DNA of 64,000 bases from an uncultured Anaerolineae bacterium (lineage in GTDB: Bacteria > Chloroflexota > Anaerolineae > JACIWP01). The notes under the pieces were generated by a model. It was not told where the DNA came from, ran no database searches, and saw nothing but the letters and a program-made list of their open reading frames with translations. Of this stretch, positions 7,936-64,000 are shown piece after piece. The position numbers and the translations under genes were made by a program. Every line of letters begins with the position of its first letter. Position 1 is the stretch's first letter. Where the stretch lies: assembly GCA_938049385.1 (NCBI GenBank), contig CALIBQ010000038.1:33974-97973 (forward strand), in the 5' to 3' direction.

Positions 7936-10113
7936 ATGGTTGGCTCAACCAAGCTGATTGATGTGGAACAGTTGATATCGCAGTTGGATGATAAGAGCGG
8001 CGTCGGTGCCCAGCTCGTACGCCGCGCCTACGAGCGCGCCCTGCAGGCCCACGCCGGCCAGGCTCGCGCCTCCGGCGAATCCTATATCCAGCACCCGCTG
8101 GCCGTCGCCAGCATCCTCGCAGACCTGCGCTTGGACCCGGCCACCATTGCCGCGGCTCTGCTCCATGATGTCGTGGAAGACACTACCATCACCCTGGATG
8201 ATATCCGTCAGGAGTTCGGGGAGGAGGTGGCCCGGCTGGTAGACGGGGTGACCAAGCTGGAGAACATCAACCAGCTTCGCAATATGGGCCGGCCGGACCT
8301 GGAGGAGGAGCAGGCCGAGAATCTGCGCAAAATCTTCCTGGCCATGGTGGATGATGTGCGCGTGGTGCTCATCAAGCTGGCGGACCGGCTCCATAATATG
8401 CGCACTCTCGGCGCGCTGCCGGAGCATAAGCGTCGGCGCATCGCCAAAGAGACGTTGGAGATTTATGCTCCACTGGCCAACCGGCTGGGTATCTGGCAGA
8501 TCAAGTGGGAGCTGGAGGACCTATCGTTCCGCTATCTGGAGCCGGCCACGTACAAGCGCATCGCCAGCCTGATTGACGAGCGGCGCGAGGACCGCATGCG
8601 CGCCTTGGAGCAGATCACCGAGGTACTGCGCCAGCGGCTGAAGGAAGCCGGCATCGAGGCGGAGGTGTCCAGCCGGCCGAAGCATATCTACAGCATCTAC
8701 CGCAAGATGCAGAGAAAGGGCGTGGACTTCGACCAGATTTATGACGTGCGCGCGGTGCGCATCATCGTCAATACCATTGCTGAGTGTTACGCCGCGCTGG
8801 GCATCGTCCATTCGCTCTGGAAGCCCATCCCGCGCGAGTTCGACGACTTCATCGCCACGCCGAAGGACAACATGTACCGCTCCCTCCACACGGCGGTGCT
8901 GGGGCCGGACGGCAAGCCCCTGGAAGTGCAGATTCGCACCTGGGAGATGCACCGCACGGCGGAATACGGCATTGCGGCCCATTGGCGCTACAAGGAACAG
9001 CTCACCAAGCGCGATGTGGATTTTGAGAACAAGATCGCCTGGCTGCGCCAGATTATGGAGTGGCGCAAGGAGGTCACGGACGCCCGGGAGTTTATGGACT
9101 CACTCAAGACCGATGTCTTCCAAGACAGGGTCTATGTGTTCACGCCGCAGGGCGATGTGATTGACTTGCCGGCCGGCGCGACACCGGTGGACTTCGCCTA
9201 TCATGTGCACACCGAGATCGGCCACCGCTGTCGGGGGGCACGCGTCAACGGCCGCATCGTCAGCCTGGATTACCAGCTCCAGAACGGCGACCAGGTCGAG
9301 ATCATCACCGCCAAGCGGGGAGGCCCCAGCCGAGACTGGCTCAACCCGCAGTTGAACTACGTCAAGACCTCCCGGGCGCGCAACAAGATTCGGCAGTGGT
9401 TCCGCCGGCTGGATCGCGAGCAGAACATCCAGCTCGGCCGGGAAATTCTGGAACGGGAGCTGAAGCGGCTCAACGCCGAGGATGCCAACATTGATGAGCT
9501 GGCGGTCAGCTTCGGCTATGAGAAAGCGGATGACTTCCTGGCGGCTATCGGTTACGGGGATATCAACAGCCAGCAGATCGCTACCAAGGTGCTGGCCGGC
9601 GAGCGGCTTCGGGCCCAGCAAGAGGAAAAACTTGCGGCGCTGAGCGAGATGAAGCCAGCGCCGGCCGCCGGCGATGTCAGCGTCATGGGCACCAGCGGAC
9701 TGCTCACCAAGCTGGCCGGCTGCTGCAATCCCCTGCCCGGCGACCCCATCGTGGGCTACGTCACCCGCGGCAAGGGTGTGACCATCCATCGCCAGGACTG
9801 CCCGAACGTCCTGCGCCTCCGGGACAAAGAGCGGCTGATCGCCGTGGATTGGGGGAGCGCCGAGGATCAGGCCTATCCGGTGATGATTGTGGTCAAGGCG
9901 TTCAACCGCGGTGGCCTTCTGCGGGATATCGCCGCGCTGGTGGCGGACGAGGGCATTGACATGAGCTCCGCCCACGCCATCACGGGCGAGAAGGGGAATA
10001 TCGCCACCATCACCGCCACCCTGGAGATCACCAGTGTCGCCCAGCTCAGCCGGGTGCTGGCCATGATTGAGCGCATCCCCAATGTGATCGAGGCCCGCCG
10101 GCTGGTGGGCTAG
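7936..10113 (+). CDS. rel: bifunctional (p)ppGpp synthetase/hydrolase RelA/SpoT homologue
   Basis: 725 aa; HD hydrolase motif (HPLAVASILADL...HDVVEDT), RelA_SpoT synthetase domain (YRSLHTAVLGPDGKPLEVQIRT), TGS and C-terminal ACT domains. Confidence 0.95.
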   Translation: MVGSTKLIDVEQLISQLDDKSGVGAQLVRRAYERALQAHAGQARASGESYIQHPLAVASILADLRLDPATIAAALLHDVVEDTTITLDDIRQEFGEEVARLVDGVTKLENINQLRNMGRPDLEEEQAENLRKIFLAMVDDVRVVLIKLADRLHNMRTLGALPEHKRRRIAKETLEIYAPLANRLGIWQIKWELEDLSFRYLEPATYKRIASLIDERREDRMRALEQITEVLRQRLKEAGIEAEVSSRPKHIYSIYRKMQRKGVDFDQIYDVRAVRIIVNTIAECYAALGIVHSLWKPIPREFDDFIATPKDNMYRSLHTAVLGPDGKPLEVQIRTWEMHRTAEYGIAAHWRYKEQLTKRDVDFENKIAWLRQIMEWRKEVTDAREFMDSLKTDVFQDRVYVFTPQGDVIDLPAGATPVDFAYHVHTEIGHRCRGARVNGRIVSLDYQLQNGDQVEIITAKRGGPSRDWLNPQLNYVKTSRARNKIRQWFRRLDREQNIQLGREILERELKRLNAEDANIDELAVSFGYEKADDFLAAIGYGDINSQQIATKVLAGERLRAQQEEKLAALSEMKPAPAAGDVSVMGTSGLLTKLAGCCNPLPGDPIVGYVTRGKGVTIHRQDCPNVLRLRDKERLIAVDWGSAEDQAYPVMIVVKAFNRGGLLRDIAALVADEGIDMSSAHAITGEKGNIATITATLEITSVAQLSRVLAMIERIPNVIEARRLVG

Positions 10114-10164: not shown

Positions 10165-11337
10165 TCAGCTCCCCAAGAATGCCGGCGTGGGGGTGGCCGG
10201 CACCTTGTCCGGCGACCAGTTGCGCTGGATATCCGCTTTCTGCATGGCCTGCTGGAGCCAATCGTTGAAAGCCTGCTGTTTCATCTGGTTGAGCACGGCG
10301 CTGTCATACGGCCGATCCATCTCGTGCGCATCCACGCGGATGATGTGATACCCGAACTGGGTCTTGACTGGCTCGCTGATCTGGCCCACTTCCAGCGCGA
10401 ACGCGGCGTCCTCAAATTCCTTCACCATCTGCCCGCGAGGGAACCAACCGAGATCGCCGCCGATAGATTTCGTGGCGGTGTCCTGGGAGAACTCCTGGGC
10501 GAGGTTGCCGAAATCCTCGCCGGCTTTCAACCGCTCCAGCACCTGTTTCGCTGTCTCTTCATCCGCAACCAAAATGTGCCGGGCGCGCACCTGCTCCCCA
10601 GAAGTGGGGACACGGCTTTCGATAAGTTCCTGCAGTTTCTCGCGGTAGAGCAGGCCGCGAATCACCTCGCGATACTCCGCTTCGGTCATGCCGCTGACGC
10701 GCTTCAGGTTTTCCAGATAGAGCGAGTAGAGGCGGTCGAATTCCTCACGCGTCATGACGGTGGGCGTGGGGGCCGGCGTCACCGCTGCGCCCGGCGTCGG
10801 TGAGGGTTCCGGGGTAGGGGTAGGTGGGTTGGGATTGTAGCCGAACAGCTCTTCAATCCGCTTCTGGACCTCCTCATCCGTCACGACAATGCCCTCATCG
10901 CGAGCGCCCTGACGGATGATGCGGTCCTGGATCAGGTCTTCCAGCACGGAGTTGGGCAAATCCGCGAGCTGGGCCTGTGCCTGGGTGATGAGCTGGTCGT
11001 AAAAACTGATAATGCTGGCCATGCTGGAATCGTTGGGGTCCAGCCGCGCCTTTTCCGTCTCCAGGTTGCGCAGGTACTCGTTCAGGTTGTTGAGCTGGTA
11101 CAGGTACATCTTCTGGTATTCGGTGGTGGAGATGCGCTCGCCGTTCACCACCGCGATGGGCGCAGAGGGCTTATAGACGTACTCGTAAATGATGCCGGCG
11201 ATAATAATGCCGGCGACGATGATGGCACCGATGATAACGCCCAGGAGCACATTCTTGCGCGCCTGCTGGTCACGGTAGCGCAGTCGCTCCTGTTTTTTCG
11301 TCAAGGTCATATCCTGTTTTCTGGGTTTCTTCGCCAT
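10165..11337 (-). CDS. membrane-anchored SurA/PrsA-like parvulin-type peptidyl-prolyl cis-trans isomerase
   Basis: ORF 10165..11370; start at MAKKPRKQ (ATG 11337); N-terminal TM helix; parvulin PPIase domain (RARHILVADEETAKQVLERLKAGEDFGNLAQEFSQD...GGDLGWFPRGQMVKEFEDAAF...GYHIIRV); Pro/Thr-rich linker. Confidence 0.8.
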   Translation of the reverse strand: MAKKPRKQDMTLTKKQERLRYRDQQARKNVLLGVIIGAIIVAGIIIAGIIYEYVYKPSAPIAVVNGERISTTEYQKMYLYQLNNLNEYLRNLETEKARLDPNDSSMASIISFYDQLITQAQAQLADLPNSVLEDLIQDRIIRQGARDEGIVVTDEEVQKRIEELFGYNPNPPTPTPEPSPTPGAAVTPAPTPTVMTREEFDRLYSLYLENLKRVSGMTEAEYREVIRGLLYREKLQELIESRVPTSGEQVRARHILVADEETAKQVLERLKAGEDFGNLAQEFSQDTATKSIGGDLGWFPRGQMVKEFEDAAFALEVGQISEPVKTQFGYHIIRVDAHEMDRPYDSAVLNQMKQQAFNDWLQQAMQKADIQRNWSPDKVPATPTPAFLGS

Positions 11338-35518: not shown

Positions 35519-35606
35519 TGCCACCTGCTCCCCTCCCTGCGTGCGGGGAGGGGGTGGGGGTGGGGCATTTCCCTCCCCGCGTGCGGGGAGGGGCCAGGGG
35601 TGGGGT
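35519..35606. repeat. tandem ~42-bp G-rich REP-like units, each a hairpin (CCCTCCC-TGCGTGCG-GGGAGGG) followed by GGTGGGGGTGGGG (G-quadruplex-capable)
   Basis: two direct copies read at 35519-35560 and 35563-35606 in the obg leader; related hairpin at 41615-41657. Confidence 0.5.
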
Positions 35607-35643
35607 AACTCCCTATATCACAAAACACACAGGGGATGGCATC

Positions 35644-60264: not shown

Positions 60265-60337
60265 GCGCCCGTAGCTCAACGGACAGAGCGCCTGACTTCG
60301 AATCAGTAGGCTGGGAGTTCGAGTCTCCCCGGGCGCG
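60265..60337 (+). tRNA. tRNA-Arg (anticodon TCG)
   Basis: GCGCCCGTAGCTCAACGGACAGAGCGCCTGACTTCGAATCAGTAGGCTGGGAGTTCGAGTCTCCCCGGGCGCG; D-arm identical to the tRNA-Arg(TCT) at 38920; anticodon loop CTTCGAA; 27:43 is C-T mismatch; CCA not encoded. Confidence 0.7.
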
Positions 60338-60707
60338 CCTTATTTTACCTTGTACCGCCGTATGTAGTACCGCTCTGCCTGTATGCCCCTATATGTGGGC
60401 ATATCCCCCCAAAGGGCGCAGGACGCTTCCCTTGTGATATCCCAAAGATTGCTACACAGATTGCTGTCAGAACATGCGTTCTAAAACACAAAGCCCCGCC
60501 AGGTTTGCGCCTGACGGGGTCCTTGTATACAATACCCCTCGGTCAGGTGCTGTGCTCACCTGGCCCACGCCCCAGGGCGTCCCTTGCGCCGCTGGGGCAC
60601 TGTTTGTCTGGGGGTATTATAGCACCGCTCCCGAAAAAGTCAATACCCTTCGCGCGTCAGTTTCTGACGTCTTGCAGACGATATGCAACGCATGAGCGCG
60701 CAAATTC

Positions 60708-61112
60708 CTACAAACATGATCTCCGCCGGTAGGCCCGGCGCAGGGCGCGCTCCCAGTCCTCAAAGTCGCGCCAGTCCCTACAGGTGCGCACCAGCTCCAG
60801 GCGCACGGTGGGCGGGTCGGGGCGCGGATCGCCGCCCAGGTAGCGGAATACGTCGAAGGGCCCCTCGGGGAAGCCGGTGACGATGTACACGGGCACATAG
60901 GGGGCCAGGGCGTTGTAGGCGATGATTTCCGCAAAGGTGATGCGGTCGTTGGGGTGCTTGTAGTCCACCAGCGCCGCGATGCCGGGCGGGTCTTTCTCCA
61001 CCAGCATGAGATCAGCGTCCGCGGCGTAGAAGCGGGGGGATATGGCCTTGTGCGCCCGCTTGAAGCGGTCGCGCCAGGAACTGCCCTGCAGGGTGCGCTT
61101 GTCATCGTTCAT
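60708..61112 (-). CDS. hypothetical protein (island)
   Basis: ORF 60708..61145; start at MNDDKRT (ATG 61112, GGAGG RBS); overlaps upstream gene by 11 nt; contains DADLMLVEK segment. Confidence 0.5.
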   Translation of the reverse strand: MNDDKRTLQGSSWRDRFKRAHKAISPRFYAADADLMLVEKDPPGIAALVDYKHPNDRITFAEIIAYNALAPYVPVYIVTGFPEGPFDVFRYLGGDPRPDPPTVRLELVRTCRDWRDFEDWERALRRAYRRRSCL

Positions 61113-61413
61113 CCCGCGCCTCCAGCGCACCGTACCAGTCCTCAAAGTCCGCCAGGCGCATGATCACCAGCGCGTCGCTGTAGCGCTGGCCCAGCGCATG
61201 CAGGACAACGATGGGCAGGCGACCGTCCGCGCCCGACACCGCCTGCGCCACCGCCTCCACCAGCCACTTGGGGAGCGCTTTACGGGTCTTGACCTCCACC
61301 GCCAGCCAGTCCGAGACCACATCGGGCCCTGCGCGGCCCGTTATCGGTATACGCTGGCCCCCCAGGTGATCCGCTATCGCCCGTTCCGCTCGCTTCCAGG
61401 CCTTCTCAGCCAT
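61102..61413 (-). CDS. PD-(D/E)XK-fold nuclease family protein (VRR-NUC/Holliday-junction-resolvase-like)
   Basis: start at MAEKAWKRAE (ATG 61413, GGGGAG RBS); motif GRAGPDVVSDWLAVEVKTRK = PD-x7-EVK catalytic signature. Confidence 0.5.
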   Translation of the reverse strand: MAEKAWKRAERAIADHLGGQRIPITGRAGPDVVSDWLAVEVKTRKALPKWLVEAVAQAVSGADGRLPIVVLHALGQRYSDALVIMRLADFEDWYGALEARDER

Positions 61414-61630
61414 CGTGATGCTCCCCGCAGGCCCTGCAGTGCCCAGTGCTGTCATGGGCCACTATGAAATAAAAATGCGCCCCCGGGTGCTCCTGACGAC
61501 TGCGCGCCAGCAGTGCCTGGTAACAGGCGTCCGGCAGGCCGCGGTTGTGCAGGAGCAGTACAAACACCACTTCATCCTTGCCCTGCATACGGCGCAGTTT
61601 GCGCTCCAACTTGTGCAGTTTATCCCTCAT
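61406..61630 (-). CDS. small hypothetical protein (74 aa), translationally coupled to upstream HTH gene
   Basis: ATG 61630 preceded by GGAGGTGAGGC RBS and overlapping the stop of the HTH gene (ATGA-type overlap region C ATG AGG GAT AAA). Confidence 0.45.
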   Translation of the reverse strand: MRDKLHKLERKLRRMQGKDEVVFVLLLHNRGLPDACYQALLARSRQEHPGAHFYFIVAHDSTGHCRACGEHHDG

Positions 61631-62009
61631 GCCTCACCTCCAGTGCTTCAACTATGCGCTCCAGCTTCTCCACCCGCTGGGTCAGCTCCACCGCCTCATA
61701 GACCTGCAGGAGGCGCGACAGCACCGTGTCCGCCGCGCGCAGGCGCAGGCGTGCGTCATCAGCCCGCATGGAGGCCTCCAGCACGTCGCCCGCGCGCCCC
61801 GCCAGCGCCAGCAGGCGACTGCGCAGGTCTGCCAGGGCCTGTTCCTGCGCCTTACCAAGCGCCTCGCAGAACGCGGACTGCTTCAGCCAGCGGTAGAGCG
61901 TCCTGGGGGCAATGCCTGCGGCCCGGCAGGCCTCCCGCCTGCTCCCCGTGCTCACCAGCGCCTCCACCGCCCTCCTCTGCTTTGGTGTAATCGTATCCTT
62001 TTCGGTCAT
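61620..62009 (-). CDS. small helix-turn-helix DNA-binding protein (phage terminase-small-subunit/regulator-like)
   Basis: ORF 61620..62204; start at MTEKDTITPK (ATG 62009, GGGGAGGG RBS); HTH ACRAAGIAPRTLYRWLKQ; C-terminal coiled coil. Confidence 0.55.
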   Translation of the reverse strand: MTEKDTITPKQRRAVEALVSTGSRREACRAAGIAPRTLYRWLKQSAFCEALGKAQEQALADLRSRLLALAGRAGDVLEASMRADDARLRLRAADTVLSRLLQVYEAVELTQRVEKLERIVEALEVRHEG

Positions 62010-62060
62010 TCTTTGCCCTCCCCTACAGCGCGCCCTATCGCCACAGACCTCAAAGGGCAA

Positions 62061-62210
62061 GGAAGTGTTGAGAATGTTGAGAATCTTGAGAATTTCCAGA
62101 AAACTTTTTATTTTCGTTCCTCTTCTACTTCGCACTATACTAACAAAATTTCGACTTTTTCCCCAGATTCTCAATTTTCTCAACATTCTCAACAATCTCG
62201 ACAATCTTAC
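62061..62210. repeat. AT-rich (~35% GC) region flanked by inverted arrays of 9-bp iterons: 3x (G/C)TTGAGAAT left, 4-5x ATTCTCAA(T/C)-like right; candidate replication origin/operator array
   Basis: read directly: GTTGAGAAT 62067-62075, 62076-62084, CTTGAGAAT 62085-62093; ATTCTCAAT 62167-62175, TTTCTCAAC 62176-62184, ATTCTCAAC 62185-62193, AATCTCGAC 62194-62202; ~70-bp AT-rich core between. Confidence 0.6.
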
Positions 62211-62225
62211 GAGGTATCAGGCCAG

Positions 62226-63947
62226 CTAAGACCTCCAGATAGTCCAGAGAGTTCCATGCCCGAACCGCTCTTCTTGTGCCTTGATGCCCGCACAGCGCAA
62301 AGTGCCCGACAGCTCCCGCAGTCGTCTGGAGATGGCTTTGCCGCCGCCCATGTAGGGCAGGTCCGCACCTGCGTCCTGGAGCGCCTGCACGATCTGGGTA
62401 GCGGTGCCACGCAGTCCTTCAGGGGGCAGGTAGGCCATCAGCGCCTGGACCAGCGGGTCCAGGTCAACAACAGACAACTGCTGAGCCATACGCCAGGCAC
62501 GCAGGTAGTGGTCGCGCAGTTTCGCGTCCCCGTCCACTAGATGATGCAAGAGACGGGCGATGGTCTGGAAGCGGGATGGCAGTCCGCTGGGCGCCTCCCC
62601 GCCCAGCGTCCACCGTGCCGCATGGCTCGCAAGGTAGGCCAGCACCCCGCTCCGCCTGTCCAATACCTCGACCACCAGCGCCCCGTCATCAAGCCTGTTC
62701 TCATCGGGCAGATCACCGATGAAGATGGGGATGAGGCGCTCCAAAATGTCAGGGCGATCCGCAAAGCCAGCGGTTCTGGTCGTGATGACGATGCCCGCCT
62801 GAATAGGGAGACTCACCAGCTTGCTGTCGGTGTACAGCTTGCGAGCGGTGATGACGCCGCCGGTAACCGCCTGCGCCAGAGCGTCGTGGAACCAAGCGTC
62901 GGGCTCGGCGTCCAGGTTGTCCAGGACGCAGACAGGGCGCCCCGTCAGGGCGGTCTTGAAATCCCGCTCGCTCAGATGCCCATCCGACGCCTCGCCCAGA
63001 CCGCCCAGAAAGATTTTAGCGACCGCCCGTGCCGCAGTGGACTTACCCGAACCCTTGGCGCCGATGAAGGCCAGCGCTGGCAAAGGCCACGCGCCCGACA
63101 TGCGCGCCAAGAGCCAGGCGATGAGCAGGAGCTTCTGACAGACGACGTCGTACTCGGGCACCTCGGGCGGGGCCTCCAGCGGAGGCTGAAGAGCCCGCAG
63201 TTCCAGCGGATGGACGGGTTCCGCGCTGGGACACCATTCAGGCAGGACGGTATCACTAGCGAAGAGCACCCCATCCGCCCCGTTCTTGAGCAAGGTGAGC
63301 CTGCCATCTGGACCAGCACGCACCAGATGCCGCATCCCGCAGGAGATGTACAGCGCGTCATCCCGCCGCAGAACCCAGCGAGCGAGCCGAACACGCCTGC
63401 CCTCATTGAAGGCCCTTGCCTGGAGGTCGGAGACCACCCAGCGGTATATCGGTTCCGCGGCGTTGAGCCCCGCCTCGGCCAGCATGGCGCGGAAGGCCAG
63501 CGCCTCACCGTCCAGGCGCAGTACCGAACCGTCCTCGGCGATGACGTAGGGCGTCCAGGACTGCGGGTCGTCGGACGCGGTGTCCAGCAGGAGGCGATCC
63601 TTGCGGGCCAGGAGGTCACCGATGGCGCTGGAGACCGAACGCTTCACGTCGCGCGACGTGCGGCTGGCCAGTGTCTCGTGCACCCAGGGTGTCAGGTCCG
63701 CCAAGCTTTCCGCATCCGGCGGTGGATCCTCCGACCGTTCGGGCGTGCGCTCCGCTGATGGCGCGGCTGGGCGCAGGGGGATGACGCGCGGCTCCGCCAG
63801 CTTGGATGGTTCCTGGGGAGGCACCTTGGCCCCGTCCCTCTCCCAGGCGGGCAGGCGGTTCGATCGCAACGCCTCCTGACGATCCCGCTCCTGGCGAACC
63901 ACTGCTTTGGCCAGATCCAACCACTCTAAGGGCGTTTTCTGCATCAC
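62226..63947 (-). CDS. P-loop NTPase, phage/plasmid primase-helicase C-terminal-like (VirE/D5 family candidate)
   Basis: 573 aa; Walker A AFIGAKGSGKSTAA, Walker B-like PVCVLDNLD; GTG start overlapping stop of an upstream minus-strand ORF (GTGATG). Confidence 0.55.
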   Translation of the reverse strand: MMQKTPLEWLDLAKAVVRQERDRQEALRSNRLPAWERDGAKVPPQEPSKLAEPRVIPLRPAAPSAERTPERSEDPPPDAESLADLTPWVHETLASRTSRDVKRSVSSAIGDLLARKDRLLLDTASDDPQSWTPYVIAEDGSVLRLDGEALAFRAMLAEAGLNAAEPIYRWVVSDLQARAFNEGRRVRLARWVLRRDDALYISCGMRHLVRAGPDGRLTLLKNGADGVLFASDTVLPEWCPSAEPVHPLELRALQPPLEAPPEVPEYDVVCQKLLLIAWLLARMSGAWPLPALAFIGAKGSGKSTAARAVAKIFLGGLGEASDGHLSERDFKTALTGRPVCVLDNLDAEPDAWFHDALAQAVTGGVITARKLYTDSKLVSLPIQAGIVITTRTAGFADRPDILERLIPIFIGDLPDENRLDDGALVVEVLDRRSGVLAYLASHAARWTLGGEAPSGLPSRFQTIARLLHHLVDGDAKLRDHYLRAWRMAQQLSVVDLDPLVQALMAYLPPEGLRGTATQIVQALQDAGADLPYMGGGKAISRRLRELSGTLRCAGIKAQEERFGHGTLWTIWRS

Positions 63948-64000
63948 CGACCTCCCTGCCTCCGGCGCTTCTGCTCTTCCGCCAGGCGCTTCAGGCGCTC
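63944..64000 (-). CDS. C-terminal fragment of an upstream island gene (truncated by window end)
   Basis: minus-strand frame ...ERLKRLAEEQKRRRQGGR then TGA overlapping the start of the P-loop gene. Confidence 0.35.
   Translation of the reverse strand, partial: ERLKRLAEEQKRRRQGGR

Follow-up and report, generated by a model that had tools for sequence, protein, structure and literature searches.

A probable SaPI-type iteron origin beside a predicted initiator-helicase gene on a strain-specific tRNA-Arg island of an uncultured Anaerolineae bacterium (Chloroflexota)

The repeat block considered here lies in a 64-kb stretch of DNA from an uncultured Anaerolineae bacterium, the whole of which is called the window below. 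The genes around the block are all on the minus strand and follow one another, in the order of transcription, as rep, the repeat array, the gene of a 129-aa HTH protein, and ORFs of 74, 117, and 145 aa. Together with the tRNA gene that borders them, they are placed as follows:

60265–60339, plus strand: tRNA-Arg(TCG)
60708–61145, minus strand: 145-aa ORF
61102–61455, minus strand: 117-aa ORF, with weak matches to RusA-like Holliday-junction resolvases
61406–61630, minus strand: 74-aa ORF
61620–62009 (ATG at 62009), minus strand: 129-aa HTH protein, terminase-small-subunit-like, the first gene after the array
62226–63944, minus strand: rep, 572-aa putative initiator-helicase, 100% identical to database entry P0001
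62232–62285, minus strand: codons of the wing beta-hairpin of Rep (residues 554–571 of the AF2 model), which varies with the iteron word in relatives

An alternative GTG start of rep is present at 63947; a database look-up of the 573-aa form it would give had no match. The gene next to the array had been described as an HTH gene from the sequence alone, and its product does match an HTH family (HTH_Tnp_1_2, 33.7 bits), but it is terminase-small-subunit-like (phrog_2538 terminase small subunit, 3.9e-10; Sf6_terminase, 24.4 bits, below the cut-off) rather than a classical repressor.

Across hrcA and the tRNA, as far as position 60350, the window matches five related strains at 90% identity, and beyond that point the similarity is lost completely. 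The DNA from 60351 onward is therefore an insertion specific to this strain, located at the 3' end of tRNA-Arg. The island starts 11 nt past the tRNA gene and is visible from about 60351 to beyond 64000 (3.6 kb), its other end lying outside the window. Because it runs past the window end at 64000, neither a primase nor an integrase gene is seen in the visible part (60351–64000), which holds the tRNA boundary, the TerS-like gene, and the gene order rep, putative origin, terS. In the relative L037 the order is integrase, AlpA, and Rep, and a protein resembling a tape-measure protein is also encoded. The hrcA-grpE-dnaK-dnaJ genes and tRNA-Arg are common to L038 to L042 at 90% identity (approximately 9719–9804 in these loci vs. 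60265–60350 in the window). After the tRNA, the related Anaerolineae strains carry different small genes (85 aa; 110–179 aa) and then EamA, so that tRNA-Arg(TCG) appears to be a hotspot of variable integration in this lineage. No paper naming Chloroflexi together with satellite terms came up in a literature search for satellites, which is weak evidence of absence.

In the block itself (62067–62211), a 73-bp spacer separates three 9-bp repeats from five copies of the repeat in inverted orientation, giving two arms:

62067–62093, plus strand: rep-distal iteron arm, inverted relative to the proximal arm; GTTGAGAAT (62067–62075), GTTGAGAAT (62076–62084), and CTTGAGAAT (62085–62093)
62094–62166, strand not applicable: AT-rich spacer, 73 bp, GC 0.342, the presumed unwinding region
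62167–62193, read on the plus strand: inverted copies ATTCTCAAT (62167–62175), TTTCTCAAC (62176–62184), and ATTCTCAAC (62185–62193)
62194–62211, read on the plus strand: decaying outer inverted copies AATCTCGAC (62194–62202) and AATCTTACG (62203–62211)
62167–62211, minus strand: the whole rep-proximal iteron arm as read on the rep coding strand, CGTAAGATT GTCGAGATT GTTGAGAAT GTTGAGAAA ATTGAGAAT, with three good and two degenerate 9-bp units

The iteron word TTGAGAAT reads towards the spacer in both arms. The rep stop codon occupies 62226–62228 on the minus strand and the array ends at 62211, placing the start of the proximal arm 15 nt past the stop. Phasing is strictly 9 bp, with TRF finding 3.1 copies (94%) in one arm and 4.6 copies (84%) in the other, and a repeat search returned the same two arrays with 9-bp spacing and mutually inverted arms. 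The GC content of 62061–62210 is 0.340 compared with 0.637 for the window, the minimum of all 150-nt windows in the 64 kb. These measurements bear out the sequence-only reading, which had described a drop to about 35% GC in DNA of about 65% GC and three direct 9-bp repeats, a spacer of about 70 bp, and four to five inverted copies in 9-bp phase. Exact copies of TTGAGAAT occur five times on the two strands of the 64-kb window, every one of them inside the block, whereas shuffled sequences contained 0.84 ± 1.0 copies and five or more in 0 of 100 shuffles. An 8-mer statistic (one mismatch allowed, both strands, 200-nt windows) was dropped, being swamped by GC-rich, near-palindromic low-complexity words, and the exact-word count and the two-arm detector described below were used in its place. 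All exact copies and clustered near-copies fall in this one block, and a second iteron cluster of the P4 style (crr-like) was not found in the visible island. A promoter and terminator scan at the block gave no terminator-like site and a single weak promoter-like match, which is on the opposite strand from the genes.

Several smaller regularities accompany the block. The motif GA(A/T)(A/T) recurs every 9 bp across seven successive units in the window, TCTGG is present again at both edges of the spacer, and an extra 9-bp tandem pair, TCCAGATAG TCCAGAGAG (plus strand, 62234–62251), lies within the last rep codons near the degenerate outer iterons. Two spacer motifs, CTGGGGAAAAAGTC (62153–62166) and GAAAATAAAAAGTTTT (62100–62115), both read on the minus strand, are common to relatives that have other iterons, the 16-nt GAAAATAAAAAGTTTT being identical in the window and L002. 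The distance from AAAAGT to ACTTTT is exactly 26 nt in the spacers of L004, L034, and L035, and in the spacers of elements with different iterons the inner iteron is abutted by a fourth "unit", CTGG(G/C)(G/C)AAAAGT. The loci concerned are L002 3424–3600, L003 1806–1970, L004 1906–1993, L034 2271–2387, and L035 1635–1740; the L003 spacer is apparently inverted relative to rep. These spacer motifs are candidates for the point where melting starts, for a conserved contact with Rep, or for a site used by a primase or a host factor. Elsewhere in the window, a G-rich 40-nt tandem repeat at 35531–35614 (2.1 copies, 84% identity, with internal palindromes, CCCTCCCCGCGTGCGGGGAGGG...) is the top-scoring tandem repeat of the 64 kb and has no relation to the iteron block.

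Three parts are predicted in the 572-aa product of rep: a domain at the N-terminus, an SF3/AAA+ ATPase with the Walker A motif GAKGSGKST, and a winged helix at the C-terminus. In its AF2 model, built with 28 homologues (pLDDT 87.8, pTM 0.81), the N-terminal domain is of the alpha/beta type and the ATPase core has a P-loop; residues 497–572 form the winged helix in the order helix-strand-helix-helix-hairpin, with the two wing strands at residues 554–561 and 564–571. A Pfam search gave sub-threshold P-loop matches and no family above cut-off, the sequence libraries searched with Rep gave no match above threshold, and a PDB profile search returned Walker-A noise only. Fold comparison, including Foldseek, places the modeled protein among SF3 initiator-helicases of the SaPI/D5 type with a C-terminal winged helix. 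Distant relatives are longer (800–1000 aa), with DnaG-type primase domains (CHC2 zinc ribbon, DNAG_N, Toprim) at the N-terminus, and two others (P0024 and P0025) are fused to a PolA-type polymerase and a primase domain. The latter are fusions of 1300–1440 aa with a 3'-5' exonuclease, combining primase, helicase, and polymerase in one polypeptide. L002 and L003 have a CHC2 primase as a gene of its own behind the repeat block, and the Pfam search and the model agree that a primase domain is absent from the 572-aa protein. Based on its predicted fold, its primase-fused relatives, and the CHC2 primase adjacent in some of them, the protein is likely a replication helicase of the D5/P4/SaPI-Rep class with a DNA-binding domain at its C-terminus. 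A putative recognition helix, GGGKAIxRxLREL, is kept in the close set of relatives, and the unannotated family as a whole occurs in Anaerolineae, Verrucomicrobiota, phage contigs, and some plasmids.

We scanned the DNA around the rep stop codon of relatives (−80 to +400) with a detector that calls an exact 6-mer tandem pair of period 8–11 together with a reverse-complement pair of the same period 15–200 nt away. Of 95 relatives, 51 had a two-arm inverted tandem array at the rep stop, whereas among 4207 control windows taken from the same loci only 4 did (Fisher p = 8e-87). A period of 9 dominates among the detector-positive relatives, and short-period arrays are approximately eight times denser near the rep stop. 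In the remaining 44 of the 95 relatives this strict detector found no two-arm array at the rep stop, some of these being truncated contigs; the high-GC L044, L045, and L047, and also L037, are without an intergenic gap after rep. All close relatives whose downstream DNA can be read show one layout directly behind the rep stop, namely three 9-bp units followed by an AT-rich spacer of 42–75 bp and approximately three inverted units. The array is kept at the rep stop over relatives with 25–63% identity from at least two phyla, including phage contigs in which rep is a fused primase-helicase. Plasmids that carry distant Rep homologues give supporting context. In that of Streptomyces melanogenes (22.85 kb), PrimPol comes first, followed by the homologue, a 627-bp intergenic region with more than 12 copies of GGTGACGCAG in both orientations, and ParA; in pH6Ac of Methanothrix (12 kb), the homologue is followed by TGTCCAC and TGTCA(A/C) repeats. 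The Methylobacterium plasmid pM44602 has no repeats behind its homologue.

The word that is repeated differs between relatives, in the close set as follows:

Window: TTGAGAAT
L002 and L003: TGCGCAAA
L004: CTGCAGAAT
L005: AGTGAAAC
L034 and L043: CGGAGAAT
L035: GCGGAAT
L036: CGCCAGAAT
L046: CGCGGAAT
L048: GTTGGAATA

More than eight further words are found in the Verrucomicrobiota-type relatives. The same word, inverted, is always present on both arms, and this holds through at least 15 different words. Conservation of the iteron motif in homologous islands had been proposed as a check on the origin interpretation; the word itself is not conserved, but the architecture is, with both arms changing in concert, which is the expectation from co-evolution of an initiator with its iterons. 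The spacer of L046 departs from the plain AT-rich type, being a (GGT/GTG)n microsatellite between three copies of CGCGGAAT and three of ATTCCGCG, approximately +40 to +100 after the rep stop.

The turnover of words bears on the possibility that the units are degenerate host DnaA boxes, to which DnaA and not the island protein would bind. TTCTCAACA matches the 9-mer TTATCCACA at seven of nine positions, five units are within two mismatches of this consensus, and the two kinds of site have the same length of 9 bp. The five matches amount to a single event because the copies repeat each other, and the rough chance of some register falling within two mismatches is a few percent. By inspection, the units of relatives (ATTCTCCGA, ATTCTGCAG, TTCTGGCGA, TGCGCAAA, and others) are at least three mismatches off, with the architecture unchanged. 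DnaA boxes were rejected as the main reading on the grounds that these units do not match, and we consider it exceedingly improbable that they explain the array.

The inverted arms could instead matter as a stem formed in DNA or RNA, which might be a rep terminator or a single-strand origin, and not as repeats that a protein binds. A single strand of the block folds at −27.4 kcal/mol (z = −5.6 relative to shuffles), as it does because the arms are inverted, and complementarity between arms is kept through two-sided changes across relatives. A stem would, however, leave the strict 9-bp tandem repetition within the arms of nearly all relatives unexplained, and its loop would be 70–100 nt long. 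The scan found no terminator-like site, and binding sites account better than a stem for arms of unequal copy number whose outer copies decay, making a purely structural function extremely unlikely.

Verrucomicrobiota-type relatives have their proximal arm within the rep ORF, in its final 20–60 nt (L064, approximately 10620–10760; L065, approximately 1900–2040; also L006 to L017 and L051 to L101). Two copies of GGTGAGTGT there encode the tail GECGEC and two copies of GCGGAGTGT encode AECAEC. Because the proximal arm encodes the last Rep residues in these elements, a change of origin specificity rewrites the C-terminal tail. The Reps of L064 and L065 illustrate the extent of the change. They are 93.5% identical overall and 96–100% identical over most of their length, but only 38% identical over the last approximately 25 residues, which form the wing hairpin and the tail. 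L064 ends in QETGRGRIITYTLKIRPSGECGEC and has the iteron GGTGAGTGT, whereas L065 ends in TEKDRNHFTIYRFKAK-SAECAEC and has the iteron GCGGAGTGT, and the spacers of the two are almost identical. Both pairings of hairpin and iteron are seen again in other backgrounds (L070, L051, and L009 vs. L055 and L074). For the last six residues the coupling to the iteron is trivial, since the iterons themselves encode them; the approximately 18 residues before those six are the wing hairpin, corresponding to residues 554–571 of the model. In the close set, a common iteron goes with a common hairpin turn, KDEHRH in L002 and L003 and SGNATV in L034 and L043, and every other iteron word is paired with a different turn.

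The co-switch of the iteron word with the C-terminal hairpin would thus indicate Rep as the protein that binds the array, and the wing hairpin at residues 554–571 is a candidate determinant of iteron specificity. The conserved helix may read the half of the unit that is conserved, GAA(T/A), and the variable wing the half that varies. The co-switch could also partly reflect physical linkage, as the hairpin codons are less than 60 nt from the iterons. A partial Mantel test, in which iteron distance was set against the identity of single domains, did not localize specificity to the C-terminal domain, being weakly significant for that domain and for the winged helix while the N-terminal control domain correlated equally well.

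The gene that follows the array varies within the family. In L002 and L003 it encodes a CHC2 primase; in L034, a homologue (56% identity) of the 117-aa protein of the window; in L035 and L043, as read from their sequences, members of the same 117-aa (RusA-like) family; and in L036, a 146-aa protein homologous to the window's 145-aa protein (53% identity). Gene order is shuffled within the element family, homologues of the 145-aa and 117-aa proteins coming directly after the origin in L036 and L034, respectively. L035 also has a homologue of the TerS-like protein (43% identity), located approximately 2 kb and four genes downstream of the array, and the array is still at the rep stop. Since the downstream gene varies while the array stays, the array goes with the helicase gene and not with the HTH gene. 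The suggestion made from the sequence alone that the block is a cooperative operator for the adjacent HTH gene is not sustained by this arrangement, and the displaced TerS homologue and the varying downstream gene remove both that operator and a packaging site as primary explanations.

The packaging alternative has the array as a pac site recognized by the adjacent terminase-small-subunit-like protein. Small terminases bind repeated sites near their own gene, and cos and pac sites such as lambda cosB and SPP1 pac have repeats around a bendable AT-rich segment, a layout that the block resembles; the gene right after the array does have the terminase matches given above. Against a pac site stand the identical architecture in front of the primase, RusA-like, and 146-aa genes of the relatives, the distance of the L035 TerS homologue, the position of one arm inside the rep ORF of Verrucomicrobiota-type relatives, and the co-switch of the iteron word with the wing hairpin of Rep. 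We regard a pac site as very unlikely.

A purely regulatory or partition array is somewhat less improbable, although still unlikely. The repeats would then be operators or centromere-like sites for a small island protein, for example of the RHH type, and would govern segregation or the downstream operon instead of the initiation of replication. Both L002 and L034 have an RHH gene upstream of rep, and proteins of this type, omega and ParG among them, bind arrays of short direct and inverted repeats. The array also lies between two co-directional genes, where it could hold a promoter, and the single weak promoter-like match, on the opposite strand, is there as well. Origin iterons often double as operators, and a regulatory side role is compatible with the block being an origin. 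The attachment of the array to the rep stop across distant relatives and phyla, including the fused primase-helicases of phage contigs, and the co-switch with the Rep hairpin both argue against a site for another protein, and convergent arms around a central AT-rich spacer are the layout of SaPI origins (PMC9371898). None of the four alternatives explains the combination of a fixed position at the rep stop, 9-bp tandem units, concerted change of the arms, and co-switching of the hairpin, and it is rather unlikely that the correct explanation is to be found among them.

The block is most likely a SaPI-type iteron origin of a self-loading initiator-helicase, located on a strain-specific mobile island at tRNA-Arg in a member of the Anaerolineae (Chloroflexota). 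The sequence-only reading had likewise taken iterons and an AT-rich element downstream of a helicase-like gene for an origin of the PICI or plasmid type, and this is supported by the predicted fold, the arrays in 51 of 95 relatives, and the SaPI layout. Because the layout agrees point by point with the published SaPI origin (PMC9371898), we propose a mechanism in which Rep binds the repeats, melts the spacer, and starts replication. In analogy to SaPI Rep, the 572-aa protein would act as a self-loading SF3 initiator-helicase, whose C-terminal winged helices would bind the 9-bp iterons TTGAGAAT in the two arms facing each other across the 73-bp spacer. One oligomer would assemble on each arm, giving two helicase rings, the spacer would be melted, and bidirectional unwinding would begin. 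Priming would be carried out by a primase, which in relatives is fused or adjacent to the helicase; none is visible in this window. The spacer may also hold a promoter of the downstream operon, giving it a possible regulatory role.

More speculatively, the island could be a PICI-like satellite of Chloroflexota, and the Rep family could use a compact, swappable cassette as a switch of origin specificity and incompatibility; we put this forward as a tentative possibility that is more likely wrong than right. The cassette might, with similar reservation, consist of the wing hairpin of the C-terminal winged helix together with the 4–5 variable bases of the 9-bp iteron. If so, the family would provide a natural, readable series of protein-DNA recognition with at least 15 pairs of hairpin and iteron.

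If the origin interpretation is correct, it assigns a function, that of a replication initiator and its cognate origin, to a protein family without Pfam or PHROG annotation, whose members occur on islands, phage contigs, and plasmids in phyla that have received little study. It would also point to a probable autonomous replicon in an uncultured Anaerolineae lineage, a possible starting point for a vector, and would supply a comparative series of iteron words and wing hairpins for how self-loading helicases read their origins. Most likely, the kind of element is a known one, and what is new is the undescribed protein family and the phylum, Chloroflexota. The mechanism is a textbook one, and the locus is therefore of value for annotation and for comparison but does not introduce a new concept.

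Among replication systems already described, the iteron plasmids (RepA of pPS10 and pSC101, pi of R6K, TrfA of RK2) have initiators and iterons that co-evolve. As at the present locus, their tandem iterons adjoin an AT-rich unwinding element and the rep gene. Their initiators, however, are winged-helix dimers or monomers without helicase activity, whereas the candidate here has a predicted SF3 ATPase core, and their iterons are direct repeats of 17–22 bp as opposed to 9-bp units in two inverted arms. Iteron plasmids also need DnaA boxes and the host DnaB, whereas the sole DnaA-box-like matches here (7/9) are the iterons themselves. In the viral SF3 initiator-helicases SV40 large T antigen and papillomavirus E1, the origin-binding domain has another fold and is N-terminal to the helicase, in contrast to the C-terminal winged helix predicted for the 572-aa protein.

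The alpha protein of satellite phage P4 belongs to the D5/P4-type primase-helicase lineage and binds octamer iterons with a C-terminal winged helix. The element described here shares with P4 the integration at a tRNA gene and, through its distant Rep relatives, primase-helicase fusions. It differs in that the 572-aa protein is without a primase domain, only distant relatives being fused to one, in having one repeat block and no crr-like second site in the visible 3.6 kb, and in the arrangement of its iterons as two convergent arms beside the gene.

The closest correspondence is with the Rep-ori systems of SaPI1, SaPIbov1, and SaPI5, from which the present locus nevertheless differs in several respects. 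There is no detectable sequence similarity to SaPI Reps, structural alignments giving 11–14% identity; the units are contiguous and 9 bp long as opposed to the penta- and hexanucleotide iterons of SaPI; the host belongs to the Chloroflexota and not the Bacillota; and no primase gene is seen upstream of rep within the window. SaPI-type systems have a cognate primase gene next to rep or fused with it; none is seen in 60351–64000, where the DNA upstream of rep runs out of the window, and relatives have a CHC2/DnaG-type primase downstream of the origin (L002 and L003) or fused to rep. SaPI iterons lie immediately downstream of rep around an AT-rich centre, at least two per side and in opposite directions (PMC9371898). 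Here too the array (end at 62211) directly follows the rep stop (62226–62228), and at least two opposed iterons, namely three on one side and five (three of them good) on the other, flank a spacer of 34% GC. In SaPI, it is the winged helix in the C-terminal domain of Rep that binds the iterons, and SaPI Rep loads itself, probably as one hexamer per side (PMC9371898); the 572-aa protein has, by its predicted fold, the same combination of an AAA+/SF3-type helicase with a C-terminal winged helix.
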